This document shows, in pieces, positions 4,916 to 28,025 of a stretch of 33,730 nt of DNA; within the stretch, counting starts at the first letter, position 1; the number at the start of each line of letters is the position of its first letter. The stretch spans positions 1 to 33,730 of the forward strand of contig JAOUEV010000040.1 in the NCBI GenBank assembly GCA_029858565.1, written 5' to 3'. Source of the DNA: Nitrospirota bacterium. Lineage in GTDB: Bacteria; Nitrospirota; UBA9217. The position numbers were made by a program, and so were the translations under genes. The notes below the pieces were generated by a model. It worked only from the letters and a program-made list of their open reading frames with translations. It did no database searches and was not told the origin of the DNA.

Positions 4916-5006
4916 TCGCGCAAAGCCGCAAAGTCGCAAAGGGGATCAGGCAATCAGGGACGGGAATTGATCTGGCCTTTCTTTGCGCCTTGGCGGCTTT
5001 GCGCGA
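4916..5006. repeat. 26-bp inverted repeat made of CGCAAAG units (REP/MITE-like)
   Basis: Left arm TCGCGCAAAGCCGCAAAGTCGCAAAG (4916-4941); reverse complement of 4981-5006 is TCGCGCAAAGCCGCCAAGGCGCAAAG (2 mismatches). Confidence 0.9.
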
Positions 5007-5046
5007 GCTATCTTTCGGATTCAATCCTTGTTTCGAGGAGCTTTAC

Positions 5047-5637
5047 ATGAGCCATCAATTCGACGACGATCTGCGGGAGACGATCCAGTTCCACGGCCAT
5101 CTCTGTCCTGGGCTGGCGCTGGGCTACCGGGTGGCCAAGGCGGCGCTTCGGGAACTCGATGCGGAGCGGCCGGGGGACGAGGAACTGGTCGCTGTAGTGG
5201 AGAACGACTCCTGCGCGGTTGACGCGATCCAGTTCATCACCGGGTGCACCTTCGGAAAGGGGAACCTGGTATTCCGGGATTACGGCAAGCATGTCTATAC
5301 GTTCCACAATCGCAGGACCGGCGCCGCGGTTCGCATCTCCGAGGATTACCAGGGATTCCGGAACGATCCGCGGTATCGGGAACTCAGGAAACGGATGGAT
5401 ACCGGAGAGAACGTCTCGCGTGAAATGCAGGCATTTAAAATGGAAAAAGCATCGGCTATTCTCTCGGCTGAAGAGGCTGAACTGATGAGGATCACGGCAG
5501 TGACGGCTCCTCCACCGTCAGAGGCCAGGATCAGGCAGTCGGTTTTGTGCAGCATCTGCGGTGAACGGTTCATGGAGACCCGCGGCCGCGAACTCCAGGG
5601 CCGGATCATTTGTATTCCCTGCTCCGAGAAGGGATGA
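5047..5637 (+). CDS. fmdE: FmdE family protein with C-terminal C4 zinc finger
   Basis: FHGHLCPGLALGYR, ENDSCAVDAIQFITGCTFGKGNL, CSICGE...CIPC; start moved to ATG 5047 after GAGGAG. Confidence 0.92.
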   Translation: MSHQFDDDLRETIQFHGHLCPGLALGYRVAKAALRELDAERPGDEELVAVVENDSCAVDAIQFITGCTFGKGNLVFRDYGKHVYTFHNRRTGAAVRISEDYQGFRNDPRYRELRKRMDTGENVSREMQAFKMEKASAILSAEEAELMRITAVTAPPPSEARIRQSVLCSICGERFMETRGRELQGRIICIPCSEKG

Positions 5638-5671
5638 CGGTATCCCAGGCTCGCCTCCCGAGCAAATCCCC

Positions 5672-5700
5672 TTGACAATGCAGGGACCTGCCGTTATTAT
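5672..5700 (+). promoter_or_regulatory. sigma70 promoter
   Basis: TTGACA-N17-TATTAT upstream of the OmpA/MotB gene. Confidence 0.75.
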
Positions 5701-5752
5701 GACCGTGCTTATTTTGCCCCGGTATCCCCCTGCTTTTATCAAGGAGCCTGCA

Positions 5753-6484
5753 ATGAAAAAACATCTTGTTTTTCCGGTAGTTTCCTTGTTTTTCCTGCTT
5801 GCGGCATGCGGTGTACCCACGGCACAGTTCGACAAGGCCGTAGCAGACCTCAAGGATTGCTCAAAAGAACGAGACGATGCGATCATGCAGTCGAGTACCT
5901 GCAAGAACCAGGTGGTCAATCTGACCACGCTGAACGACACGGTCAAGAAGGAACGTGACGATCTGAAGGTAAAAGTCGATGAATTGAACGCCAAGGCGGA
6001 AAAGGCCGCAGAGCTGGAAAAGGCCACGGCGACCTACCAGGACCTTCAGAAGAAACTGGAAAAGGAGATCCAGGAAGGCAAGATCCAGATCACCGAAATG
6101 AAGAACCGTCTGACCATGACCATGGTGGACAAGATCCTCTTTCCCTCGGGAAGCGCCGATGTGAGCAGGGACGGCAAGCTCGTTCTGGACAAGGTCATTT
6201 CGATCATCAAGGATGTGGCGGACAAGCGCATCCAGGTCGAGGGCCATACGGACAACGTGAGGATCTTCAGCTCCATTAAAACGAAATATCCGACGAACTG
6301 GGAGCTCTCCACTGCCCGTGCGACCCAGGTTGTCCGCTACCTCCAGGAGGAGGGCGGGATCGATCCCAAGCGCCTCTCCGCCACGGGATATTCCGAATAC
6401 CAGCCGGTCGCGGCGAACGACACCGATGAAGGCAAGGCCAGGAACCGGCGCATCGAGATCGTCCTTCTGCCGCTTCTGAACTAG
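5753..6484 (+). CDS. OmpA/MotB-family peptidoglycan-binding lipoprotein with coiled coil
   Basis: Lipobox LAAC, coiled-coil segment, ILFPSGS, VEGHTDN, NWELSTARA, NRRIEI; RBS AAGGAG before ATG 5753. Confidence 0.9.
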   Translation: MKKHLVFPVVSLFFLLAACGVPTAQFDKAVADLKDCSKERDDAIMQSSTCKNQVVNLTTLNDTVKKERDDLKVKVDELNAKAEKAAELEKATATYQDLQKKLEKEIQEGKIQITEMKNRLTMTMVDKILFPSGSADVSRDGKLVLDKVISIIKDVADKRIQVEGHTDNVRIFSSIKTKYPTNWELSTARATQVVRYLQEEGGIDPKRLSATGYSEYQPVAANDTDEGKARNRRIEIVLLPLLN

Positions 6485-6493
6485 GATCTCCGC

Positions 6494-25549: not shown

Positions 25550-25906
25550 ATGCCGAGAGCAAAAGGCGGCCCGAAAACACGGGCCAGAAGAAAGCGGGTA
25601 CTGAACCTCGCAGAAGGTTACTGGGGAGCAAAATCAAAGCTCTTCCGTTCAGCTACCGAACAGGTAGACCGTTCGCTGAAGTATGCGTACCGCGACCGCA
25701 AGGTGCGGAAGCGCGATTTCCGCAGGCTCTGGATCGCCCGTATCAATGCGGCGGCCCGTCTGAACGGAATGTCCTACAGCAAGTTCATTGCCGGACTGAC
25801 CAAGGCCGGTATCACGCTGGACCGGAAGATCCTGTCCGACATGGCGATCACCGATCCCGCCGGTTTCACGAAGATCGCTGATGCGGCGAAAGCGGCAACG
25901 GCGTAG
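25550..25906 (+). CDS. rplT: 50S ribosomal protein L20
   Basis: [46 protein letters not shown]. Confidence 0.98.
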
Positions 25907-25920
25907 ATCGGAAGCAAGAA

Positions 25921-26023
25921 GCAGGATTAGATAAGGCAGGATTATGAGGATTAGCAGGATTAGAGGGAAACCTTTAATCCTCTAATCCTTTTTTATTGAT
26001 CCTTGTTCTCCGTAATCCCTGCC
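25921..26023. repeat. Inverted pair of (GC)AGGATTA nonamer-type arrays
   Basis: Forward GCAGGATTA, GCAGGATTA, TGAGGATTA, GCAGGATTA; reverse TAATCCTC TAATCCTT ... TGATCCTT ... TAATCCCTGCC. Confidence 0.8.
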
Positions 26024-26076
26024 TCTGTTTTTTATTGACATGCCGCGATAATTCGGTTAAAAAACTACAAGAAATT

Positions 26077-27879
26077 ATGGAGATACGGGGCCGTACATTA
26101 CTGGCGGCCATGACGGCTTGCACGATCACCCTGCTGTTTACCGCCGATTCACTCCCTTCGCCCACCAGCGAGGCGGGGCGCACGTATTCTGTCGCCCGGG
26201 AACGTCTTGCGAAACTGAAGAAGTCCCCCAAGAGAAAAAAATACCGGTCCTACTGGATCGACTGCATCCGTCTGTTCGAGTCAATCGAACAAAAATATCC
26301 TTCCACGGCCGAAGCCGCTGATTCCTGTTTTGACCGCGCCGGCGCTTACCTCGATCTCTACAACTACAACCGCCACACAAAGGACGCGGCAGAGACCGCG
26401 AAAGCCTTCAGCATGTGCCAGGAATCCTATCCCGCCCATCCCCGCGCGCCGGAAGCCTTTTACTGGAACATAGTCATTGCCAAGGATGTGAAGAAGAACA
26501 AAACGGCTGCTCTGGAATCCTTCAAGCGATTGTCCGCGGTCTATCCTGATAGCGACTGGACGGAGAAGGCAAGGACGCGGCTTGGCATCAGGACTGCTGC
26601 TGCGAAGGCCGCCAGAAGGAATGGGAAGAAGAAGGAATCGGAGATCCGTAATGTTCCGGAAACGGTGATAGAAACTCCGAAAGGGCCTCCGGGAACCGTG
26701 ACGAACGTTCGCTACTGGTCCGGCGGGAATTATACGCGCATCGTCATTGACCAGGATAAACCGCTCAGGTTCCAGGCGCATGAGTTGAAAAATCCCGACC
26801 GGTTGGTGTTTGACATTCTGCATTCCCGCGTTTCGGGCTCGGTGAACAAAGAGCCGCTCTCGGTGAACGACGGCATCCTGAAACAGGTGCGGACGAGCCA
26901 GTACGCACCGAACACAGTACGTGTGGTTTTGGATCTTGCAAGCCTCAAGAGTTACGGCGCGTTCCCGCTCCATGAGCCCGAGCGCCTGGTGATCGATGTT
27001 ACGGGCGCTGGGGCGGGAGATGACGACAACGGCGATGCTAAACAGCCGACAGCCGATGTTCCGGGCACGGAGACGAGATCCGCACCGCTGATACCGGACC
27101 ACCCGAAAGCGACGAAGCCGGACCCTGATGTGAGTGCCGATCCAAAGCTATCGCTCTCGCGCCAACTTGGTCTCAAGATAAAAACTATCGCCATAGATGC
27201 GGGGCATGGCGGCCATGATCCAGGCGCCATCGGAAAAAGCGGGCTGAAAGAAAAAATGGTTACCCTTGATATTGCTAAAAGGCTGCAGGTGCTTGTCAAG
27301 GAGCGGCTCGGTTGTCAGGTGGTAATGACAAGAGACCGGGATGTTTTCATCCCGCTGGAAGAAAGGCCGTTCATTGCCAAATCGAAAGGCGCTGATCTCT
27401 TTGTTTCTGTTCATGTGAATGCAAACAGAAAGCGCAAAGTGCGCGGAATCGAGACCTACATTCAGAGTCTCCGGGCGTCGGACCGCGAAGCCATGGCAAC
27501 TGCGGCACTGGAAAATGCCACTTCGACCAAGACGCTAAGTCAGATCGGCTCGGAGCTCGACCGGATACTTAAGGATCTCAGGACAGATGACAAACTGAAC
27601 GAATCGGTAGAACTTGCCGGTTACGTGCAAAATTCGCTCGTAAGGAATGTGCGACCGGCAAAAGGATACGTAGTGAACCGTACTGTGAAGAGGGCATTTT
27701 TCTATGTGCTGGTGAACACGGAGATGCCGAGCATCCTTGCCGAGGTGGGATTTATCAGCAATCCCGATGAGGAGAAACTGCTTAAAACGGAATCCTACCG
27801 TCAGAAGATAGCGGAGGCCCTGTATCAGGGCGTAAAGAAGTACGTTGATGCGCGGGAGCCGCAAACGGCGGGACTGTGA
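26077..27879 (+). CDS. N-acetylmuramoyl-L-alanine amidase (TPR-like + AMIN + Amidase_3)
   Basis: Signal-like N-terminus, helical repeats, AMIN (TRIVID, PDRLVFD, VRVVLD), IDAGHGGHDPGA, LFVSVHVN, PSILAEVGFISN; start uncertain (26077 or 26110). Confidence 0.92.
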   Translation: MEIRGRTLLAAMTACTITLLFTADSLPSPTSEAGRTYSVARERLAKLKKSPKRKKYRSYWIDCIRLFESIEQKYPSTAEAADSCFDRAGAYLDLYNYNRHTKDAAETAKAFSMCQESYPAHPRAPEAFYWNIVIAKDVKKNKTAALESFKRLSAVYPDSDWTEKARTRLGIRTAAAKAARRNGKKKESEIRNVPETVIETPKGPPGTVTNVRYWSGGNYTRIVIDQDKPLRFQAHELKNPDRLVFDILHSRVSGSVNKEPLSVNDGILKQVRTSQYAPNTVRVVLDLASLKSYGAFPLHEPERLVIDVTGAGAGDDDNGDAKQPTADVPGTETRSAPLIPDHPKATKPDPDVSADPKLSLSRQLGLKIKTIAIDAGHGGHDPGAIGKSGLKEKMVTLDIAKRLQVLVKERLGCQVVMTRDRDVFIPLEERPFIAKSKGADLFVSVHVNANRKRKVRGIETYIQSLRASDREAMATAALENATSTKTLSQIGSELDRILKDLRTDDKLNESVELAGYVQNSLVRNVRPAKGYVVNRTVKRAFFYVLVNTEMPSILAEVGFISNPDEEKLLKTESYRQKIAEALYQGVKKYVDAREPQTAGL

Positions 27880-27882
27880 AGA

Positions 27883-28025
27883 AGTGCGGAGTTCGGAGTG
27901 CGAAGTGCGGAGTAGAGTTAATATGCAAGGCAGCAATAATTAATCATCTGATTGACTATAGATGATTCCCTCGGTTTCTTATCTTGGATTCCTAATTCCG
28001 CACTTTGCACTCAGCATTTCGCACT
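27883..28025. repeat. Inverted pair of AGTGCGG heptamer arrays between convergent genes
   Basis: Forward AGTGCGG AGTTCGG AGTGCGA AGTGCGG (27883-27910); reverse CCGCACT TTGCACT CAGCATT TCGCACT (27998-28025); AT-rich core with inner IR AATCATCT/AGATGATT. Confidence 0.92.

Follow-up and report, generated by a model that had tools for sequence, protein, structure and literature searches.

The DNA analysed here, called the window throughout, is a contig of 33,730 nucleotides (JAOUEV010000040.1, our contig C102) from the 3.92-Mb assembly GCA_029858565.1 of a Nitrospirota bacterium, which comprises 144 contigs. Its 32 open reading frames (ORFs) are ordinary housekeeping genes, and the encoded RibBA is 85-90% identical to its nearest named records, metagenome-assembled genomes of Nitrospirota. 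Five intergenic gaps hold a gene-less cassette, in which a short tandem array is followed across a loop by its inverted counterpart. These cassettes were first described in a reading of the letters alone (the sequence-only reading), and the description is borne out by the arrays that Tandem Repeats Finder (TRF) reports, by the top four ranks among the inverted repeats and by folds that beat 200 shuffles. A Pfam scan of the 32 ORFs finds no transposase family, as had been stated. In an Rfam 15 scan of the window only four tRNAs reach the gathering score, and the cassettes match no RNA family.

Ranked by length, the 41 inverted repeats of the window are headed by four of the cassettes, with arms at 27877-27911/27997-28031, 22086-22117/22141-22172, 8384-8414/8507-8537 and 4916-4941/4981-5006. 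TRF reports arrays at 224-360 (period 7, 19.6 copies), 4919-4941, 8384-8415, 8506-8537, 22087-22117, 22155-22171, 25938-25966, 25971-25989 and 27883-27913. The cassette at 4916..5006 lies between a cbiO-like ABC ATPase gene and an FmdE-domain gene. It has the termini TCGCG...CGCGA and carries in each arm three CGCAAAG cores at 8-nt spacing around a 39-nt loop (predicted folding free energy, dG, -51.7 kcal/mol; z -5.6). The ribBA-ribH junction is occupied by the cassette at 8384..8537, which begins 3 nt past the stop codon and ends 15 nt before the next start, with ATTGCGG/ATTTCGG arms and a 92-nt loop (dG -65.3, z -5.5). ATTGCGG arms with a loop of 23 nt form the cassette at 22086..22172 (dG -39.8, z -7.2), beginning 1 nt past the stop codon of a sigma-factor gene and ending 4 nt before tRNA-Arg(cct). 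The cassette at 25921..26023, between rplT and an amidase gene, is built of AGGATTA / TAATCCT words with uneven spacers and is the least regular of the five (dG -48.2, z -5.9). Finally, the cassette at 27877..28031, with AGTGCGG/AGTGCGA arms and an 85-nt loop (dG -66.8, z -7.3), takes up all of the space that separates the stop codons of the amidase gene and prfB, which are convergent. Written as RNA, the five are predicted to form long hairpins of -39.8 to -66.8 kcal/mol (z -5.5 to -7.3), which none of 200 dinucleotide shuffles matches. The RNA hairpins proposed earlier thus stand as long and stable predicted folds; a strand-specific G.U signal that would tie them to the transcript did not appear.

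The words of the window cassettes recur in the same genome around small genes. Profile searches of the genome give five PF05635 matches above the cut-off and seven PF13366 matches, and 10 of these 12 small genes lie between inverted tandem-word arms when judged by eye. The filled counterpart of the cassette at 4916..5006 is C142:57022-57486, where CGCAAAG arms enclose a TIGR04256 GxxExxY gene. That of 27877..28031 is C93:8415-8903, where AGTGCGG/AGTGCGA arms enclose a TIGR02436 four-helix-bundle gene, and GACGAGA arms enclose another TIGR02436 gene on C7. The C93 protein matches one solved structure, 2rld, which is of unknown function and was deposited with five chains. No filled cassette of this genome carries ATTGCGG. 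Elsewhere, three genomes have four-helix-bundle genes of the C93 subfamily between ATTGCGG/ATTTCGG, AATGCGG and AGTGCGG arms (loci L099, L103 and L098). The AGGATTA word has only a weak filled match, on C123, with 12-nt arms. A sister four-helix-bundle subfamily goes with AAGAAGT-like words, with arms of at least 17 nt in 10 of 15 loci. At C100:32544-33281 we observe a GxxExxY gene that is flanked by two complete CACGAAG hairpins and does not lie inside one loop. The sequence-only reading had proposed a dispersed non-autonomous class as one option and suggested that the cassettes may be empty versions of those with TIGR02436, GxxExxY or DUF559 genes. Filled copies carrying window words in the same genome agree with the first two of these cargoes; DUF559, with no match in the genome, drops out.

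Both gene families are widespread among relatives, with PF13366 in 47 and PF05635 in 47 of 60 genomes of the same family. Among the best 30 loci of each kind in relatives, arms of at least 16 nt are found at 21 GxxExxY and 19 four-helix-bundle loci by a script that misses some loci through start-codon errors. The arm period is 7 in 16 of the 19 four-helix-bundle loci; at the GxxExxY loci it is 8-10 in 13 of 21 and 7 in none. The family therefore comprises two classes. One has a strict 7-nt period and four-helix-bundle genes (TIGR02436/S23p, Avd-like), and the other goes with GxxExxY (PDDEXK_3) genes and has a 7-nt core, CRCRRAK, at a spacing of 8-10 nt. Common to both is a design in which the arms are inverted short tandem arrays of one 7-base word and the loop, in full-length copies, carries one small gene. 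It follows from the class periods that the window holds one GxxExxY-type cassette (4916) and four of the four-helix-bundle type (8384, 22086, 25921 and 27877). By arm design, shared words and variable presence, the window cassettes are gene-less members of the TIGR02436/GxxExxY cassette family.

Three single arrays in the window had been listed beside the cassettes, and they fare unequally. The array at 224..360 is strong, an unpaired, expanded run of 19.6 AGAGACG units whose word is that of the arms of the filled four-helix-bundle cassette on C7. It adjoins a terminator-like GC stem with a T-run (386-420) that belongs to the minus-strand gene at 444-1190, and it lies upstream of the next minus-strand gene. 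At 7134..7151, between the riboflavin synthase gene and ribBA, only 2.5 units of A[TG]T[GT]CGG remain as a half-cassette with no hairpin of its own and a fold no better than shuffles (z -0.46). The array at 12791..12825, between purF and tRNA-Phe, is a degenerate series of AGTKCGR-like units read by eye; it gives no TRF row at score 30, and its fold is likewise no better than shuffles (z -1.94). Elsewhere in the window, at 31125-31439, this Nitrospirota genome carries a cytochrome c7-type gene (PF14522, E 3e-19).

The genome as a whole is rich in such repeats. TRF gives 377 period-7 rows, and 445 arrays of period 7, 8 or 14 remain after merging. A purpose-written detector finds 244 period-7 and 154 period-8 arrays, compared with 20 and 16 in an order-2 Markov genome. 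The genome-wide scan against controls that had been proposed as a check comes out clearly: a period of 7 or 8 in both arms is seen in 86 inverted-repeat clusters, compared with 0 and 2 in two Markov genomes. We refer to the 57 of these 86 clusters with a loop of at most 150 nt as empties. Their words are A[TGA]T[GT]CGG in 20, CGCAAAG in 11, CACGAAG in 5, CACGGAG in 4 and CGCAGAG in 2, with 15 others. The order of units is mirrored between the two arms beyond what word content explains in 26 of 37 cassettes (p 1.7e-4), which indicates that complementarity itself is inherited or selected.

The siting of the empties is distinctive and bears on two of the alternatives. By gap type, 51 of the 57 are co-directional, 3 convergent and 3 divergent; the genome has 2774, 246 and 254 gaps of these types. 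The proximity to stop codons described earlier is confirmed, with six of eight window arrays starting within 15 nt of a stop and, genome-wide, a median stop-to-cassette distance of 11 nt in the 51 co-directional gaps, followed by 19 nt from cassette to next start. GC-rich stems just past stop codons are what intrinsic transcription terminators or attenuators would look like, and a role as terminator substitute had indeed been suggested. Yet a run of at least four T within 12 nt downstream follows only 6 of the 51 cassettes, the co-directional gaps that hold 51 of the 57 are mostly operon-internal and only three are convergent, and three cassettes lie inside open reading frames. We therefore consider termination or attenuation highly improbable as an explanation. 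A second alternative is that the words are DNA sites bound by a global regulator or nucleoid protein of the chromosome, a reading already put forward, with IHF/HU as the proteins, for the paired tandem repeats of Geobacter metallireducens. Tandem words do resemble protein landing sites, and the passages of that precedent bearing on the sites (PMC2700814) describe the same architecture. However, divergent gaps, where promoters lie, hold only 3 of the 57 cassettes, many different words coexist in one genome, cassettes also lie within leader-peptide coding sequence and between tRNAs, and occupancy of orthologous sites is not conserved. This makes a regulator site an improbable account.

Among operon junctions it is the tightest that carry cassettes, and cassettes are also found in the spacers between tRNAs and, in frame, within pseudopilin leader peptides. 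When the cassette is removed, the residual gap has a median of 33 nt (47 gaps), compared with 92 nt in 2265 unoccupied co-directional gaps; none of 5000 resamples of the unoccupied gaps reaches a median of 33 nt. In the tRNA cluster of C14 three inter-tRNA spacers are filled by complete hairpins, and other spacers hold arrays. The cluster comprises seven tRNA genes, at positions 465-1910 of locus L003 (C14:127400-129800), and almost all of its spacers carry heptamer hairpins or arrays. A second copy of the 3'-terminal 30 nt or so of tRNA-Arg(tct) follows some 180 nt downstream (L003 656-685 and 838-869), a pattern of the kind that integration at a tRNA gene leaves behind. In the type II secretion system (T2SS) pseudopilin operon on C115, three cassettes lie within the leader-peptide coding regions of consecutive genes (C115:23000-26000, positions 760-1960 of that locus), in frame and free of stop codons. 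The start codons of these genes overlap the upstream stops (TAATG, GTGA and ATGAATAG), and the putative leaders have 43, 41 and 38 residues, compared with 6 in the first pseudopilin. Similar in-frame cassette peptides are found in seven relatives, and leaders have 5-7 residues in cassette-free orthologues. Selection for stop-free words was tried as an explanation and is rejected at the word level. Although 203 of 285 arrays use stop-free words, these words are not enriched among the distinct words (36 of 69, with 36.9 expected).

This placement also agrees with an alternative in which the cassettes are RNA elements selected by the host, whose hairpins process or stabilise polycistronic transcripts as RNase III sites or 3' exonuclease blocks, with the genes as occasional passengers. 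Very stable predicted folds, the tight intra-operon junctions and tRNA spacers, arm complementarity beyond word content and the presence of an RNase III gene in the genome all agree with it. It does not lead one to expect that 8 of 20 and 5 of 12 relatives' loci have the same junction without an array, or that words track the subfamily and presence of a protein, which RNA function alone does not predict, and the sense strand shows no G.U bias. On balance we regard it as unlikely, though the least unlikely of the four alternatives to cassette insertion that we discuss.

Words and proteins are related in the GxxExxY class, where the protein clusters of 21 cassettes coincide with their words. Five GxxExxY proteins from five genera, 78-82% identical, share ACCGCAGAGGACGCAGAGG arms. 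In proteins that are 75-78% identical, CACGGAG stands in place of CACAGAG in all six units of both arms. Units that decayed independently would ruin the repeats; that they change in concert suggests either homogenisation or selection exerted by something that reads the word.

Abundance of a word likewise follows its cognate protein. The pattern AKTKCGG x3, with up to two mismatches, has 126+132 matches in this genome compared with 3+3 for the reversed control, and 0-449 matches across 61 genomes, many of which are incomplete assemblies in which repeats break contigs. Counted as present at an identity of at least 60%, the C93 protein occurs in 16 of the 61 genomes. The median number of matches is 170 in these 16 and 32 in the 45 without it (Mann-Whitney p 5.6e-5), and all 17 genomes with fewer than 15 matches are without the protein. 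The CGCAAAG pattern (CGCAAAGN x3) has 36+33 matches here and none in the control, compared with 3, 2 and 2 in genomes of the same genus; CGCAAAG is a lineage-specific burst in this genome. Its cognate protein, counted at an identity of at least 73%, is present in eight genomes with a median of 21 matches, compared with 1 in the 53 others (p 1.9e-5), and at least eight matches are found in 8/8 genomes with and 7/53 without it. Crosses between non-cognate words and proteins are weak (p 0.09 and 0.18). Since related genomes are not independent, all these p-values overstate the case, and we treat the associations as descriptive.

The occupants of orthologous junctions turn over. At ribBA-ribH, compared in 20 loci, the length of the gap ranges from 13 to 172 nt. 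Clear hairpins, with six or more different words among them, occur at 9 of the loci; 3 have partial or single arrays, and 8 have none. A survey of ribBA gaps across many phyla finds a periodic-armed inverted repeat in 3 of 79 loci, and the occupancy of 9/20 in this family is therefore lineage-specific. The amidase-prfB gap ranges from 0 to 471 nt in 12 loci, and 5 of the 12 are without an array. Here the gap is occupied by the empty AGTGCGG cassette. In a genome of the same genus it contains a cassette built of other words and filled with a four-helix-bundle gene (PF05635, E 1e-36), and in a further genome it contains a GTAGACA hairpin. The states to be looked for in such an alignment had been listed as empty, repeat-only and gene-filled. 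We observe the first two at both junctions and the third at amidase-prfB. Two further amidase-prfB gaps deserve mention. That of G012 (L112) contains two copies of a different palindrome, CCCYGYAGCTTGCTGCRGGG, and in that of G010 (L114) long inverted TGAGACN / AAGTCTT arrays adjoin an ATTGCGG array. Neither the ribBA-ribH nor the amidase-prfB gaps show a visible target-site duplication. Four metagenome runs searched with positions 8300-28100 return only short pieces, along with joints between same-word arms of other loci, and no contig among them bridges a junction without its cassette.

A further possibility is that replication slippage at existing hairpins creates and extends the arrays on the spot, with no mobile element, much like the repeat-generating system that had been entertained as an alternative. 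Variable unit numbers, the one array of 19.6 copies and the unrelated loops are in line with this, and passages of PMC4990558 describe heptamer copy numbers that differ among Coxiella strains. Slippage, however, explains growth in copy number and not origin. The same words and the fixed termini TCGCG...CGCGA turn up at dozens of loci and in several genera, and the words follow the subfamily of the enclosed protein, so that a purely local origin is improbable.

In summary of the observations, empty and filled copies share words and design, the occupants of a junction differ between relatives, and abundance tracks the cognate protein. We conclude that the five cassettes are probably gene-less, non-autonomous members of a group of insertable palindromic cassettes, built like the ORF-bearing intervening sequences (IVS) of 23S rRNA. 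Such cassettes would arrive by insertion as DNA. Their words may be binding sites of the cassette-encoded protein, which could act in trans on gene-less copies, as RAYT does on REPINs. Operon junctions, tRNA spacers and leader peptides would tolerate a cassette because its transcript closes into one long stem. The stem would loop the insert out and would probably be cleaved by RNase III, as happens to the IVS of rRNA.

Apart from the non-independence of the genomes, several observations weigh against this insertable-cassette reading. Copies with the same word have unrelated loops, as in the ribBA-ribH gaps of this genome and of L014, which both carry ATTGCGG arms. A tblastn search of 335 array regions (193 kb, known cargo masked) finds no remnants of cargo, with no match at E<0.5. 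Taken together, unrelated loops and missing remnants imply that the copies were neither simply duplicated from a single master nor produced by recent deletion. There is no empty/occupied pair of near-identical genomes for the ribBA-ribH and amidase-prfB gaps or among the metagenome contigs, and consequently no insertion boundary or target duplication is defined. On the sense strand, G.U and A.C mismatches number 72 and 57 (p 0.22), which gives no sign of selection on the RNA fold. The match between word and protein has exceptions as well: 13 genomes have at least 100 AKTKCGG matches and no protein at least 60% identical, and one genome has 77 CGCAAAG matches without the cognate protein. The siting statistics take their gene positions from a purpose-made, crude gene caller. 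To our knowledge, neither cargo protein is a known transposase, and we know of no catalytic activity for the four-helix bundle.

A further step goes beyond insertable cassettes, and we propose it tentatively. The cassettes might be a second replicator of the REPIN-RAYT kind, in which small proteins that are not transposases read 7-base words and maintain or spread the hairpins, with words and proteins co-evolving so that all units switch together. Candidate readers, suggested with the same reserve, would be a pentameric four-helix bundle related to Avd of diversity-generating retroelements and the 120-residue GxxExxY nuclease. Since each word goes with a single small protein, the system lends itself to direct tests.

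Should the cassette reading hold, it would assign a role to TIGR02436 and GxxExxY, two very large families of unknown function, and explain the excess of tandem heptamers in some bacterial genomes. Intervening sequences of rRNA would then represent a special case, namely those members of a far broader cassette family that landed in rRNA. The replicator view, if true, would add a natural, re-programmable word-recognition code and bring intervening sequences, heptamer excess and the two protein families together. The system may also provide a compact and naturally diverse collection of proteins that bind nucleic acids in a sequence-specific manner. In annotation, cassettes account for over-long intra-operon gaps, for breaks in metagenome contigs and for pilin-like genes with long leaders.

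Among known repeats, the short tandemly repeated repetitive (STRR) heptamers of heterocystous cyanobacteria resemble the cassettes in being dispersed, intergenic tandem heptamers. Miniature inverted-repeat transposable elements (MITEs) such as Correia elements resemble them in being small, non-autonomous inverted-repeat elements that are co-transcribed with their neighbours. MITE arms, in contrast, are not made of tandem words; each is a unique terminal repeat that a transposase recognises. Our literature search yielded only papers that use STRR for fingerprinting and none that connects it with enclosed genes. The cassettes show neither an interior derived from an autonomous element, as MITEs do, nor a visible target-site duplication. 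By their location they fall outside rRNA IVS, by the missing Y1 link outside REP/RAYT (repetitive extragenic palindromes and their associated tyrosine transposases) and, since most lack a U-tract and a position at the end of a transcription unit, outside intrinsic terminators. In the searched literature, mostly non-subscription, no paper was found that links dispersed tandem-heptamer hairpins to TIGR02436 or GxxExxY.

The closest likeness in architecture is to the 23S rRNA IVS of Coxiella burnetii and Leptospira, where, in the passages of PMC4990558 concerned with it, inverted repeats forming a long stem enclose a four-helix-bundle gene (S23p). The arm heptamers vary in copy number there, and the host RNA stays functional after RNase III cuts. 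The Coxiella element is described in the same passages as a 28-bp stem with tandem heptamers in which RNase III cuts. The family enclosed in the cassettes here is likewise PF05635/TIGR02436. Unlike rRNA IVS, the window copies are gene-less and are sited outside rRNA, at junctions within mRNAs, next to a tRNA and between converging genes. A genome contains dozens of cassettes, one of the two classes goes with a nuclease-fold gene, and cleavage would be presumed here by analogy.

The paired class 1-3 sites of G. metallireducens (Aklujkar et al. 2009, PMC2700814) share another part of the design. As the main-text passages describe them, 3-5 tandem repeats of 7-9 nt lie on opposite strands at variable distance, dozens per genome and mostly intergenic. 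They differ in phylum, in words and in having been read as IHF/HU sites, and enclosed four-helix-bundle or GxxExxY genes go unmentioned in those main-text passages, on which the supplement may bear.

REPIN-RAYT systems, as far as the relevant parts of PMC3116915 and PMC3337134 describe them, resemble the cassettes in combining many gene-less extragenic palindromic doublets with a few protein genes flanked by the same repeats. They are also alike in an abundance linked to the cognate protein, which we see here for two word families in phylogenetically non-independent genomes. Unlike in those systems, the cassette protein is not a Y1 transposase, and the arms are tandem words instead of one conserved REP of 20-25 nt, with several word families that each have their own proteins. 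The genome does contain 12 Y1_Tnp (IS200/RAYT-like) matches, including C88:30641-31591, C72:1699-2556, C123:5877-6851, C66:2759-3607, C51:46218-47069 and C44:708-1637. Several of these genes encode about 300 residues and have their own 18-24 nt inverted repeats, unrelated to the heptamers, and thus form a separate repeat system. As mobilisers of the cassettes Y1 transposases were considered and rejected, since 9 of the 12 matches are without an array within 1.5 kb and their flanks are unrelated. We conclude that the cassettes are a real, non-random and genome-wide family of elements. As a kind they are barely described, and their nearest published kin are the 23S rRNA IVS, the paired repeats of G. 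metallireducens and REPIN-RAYT.

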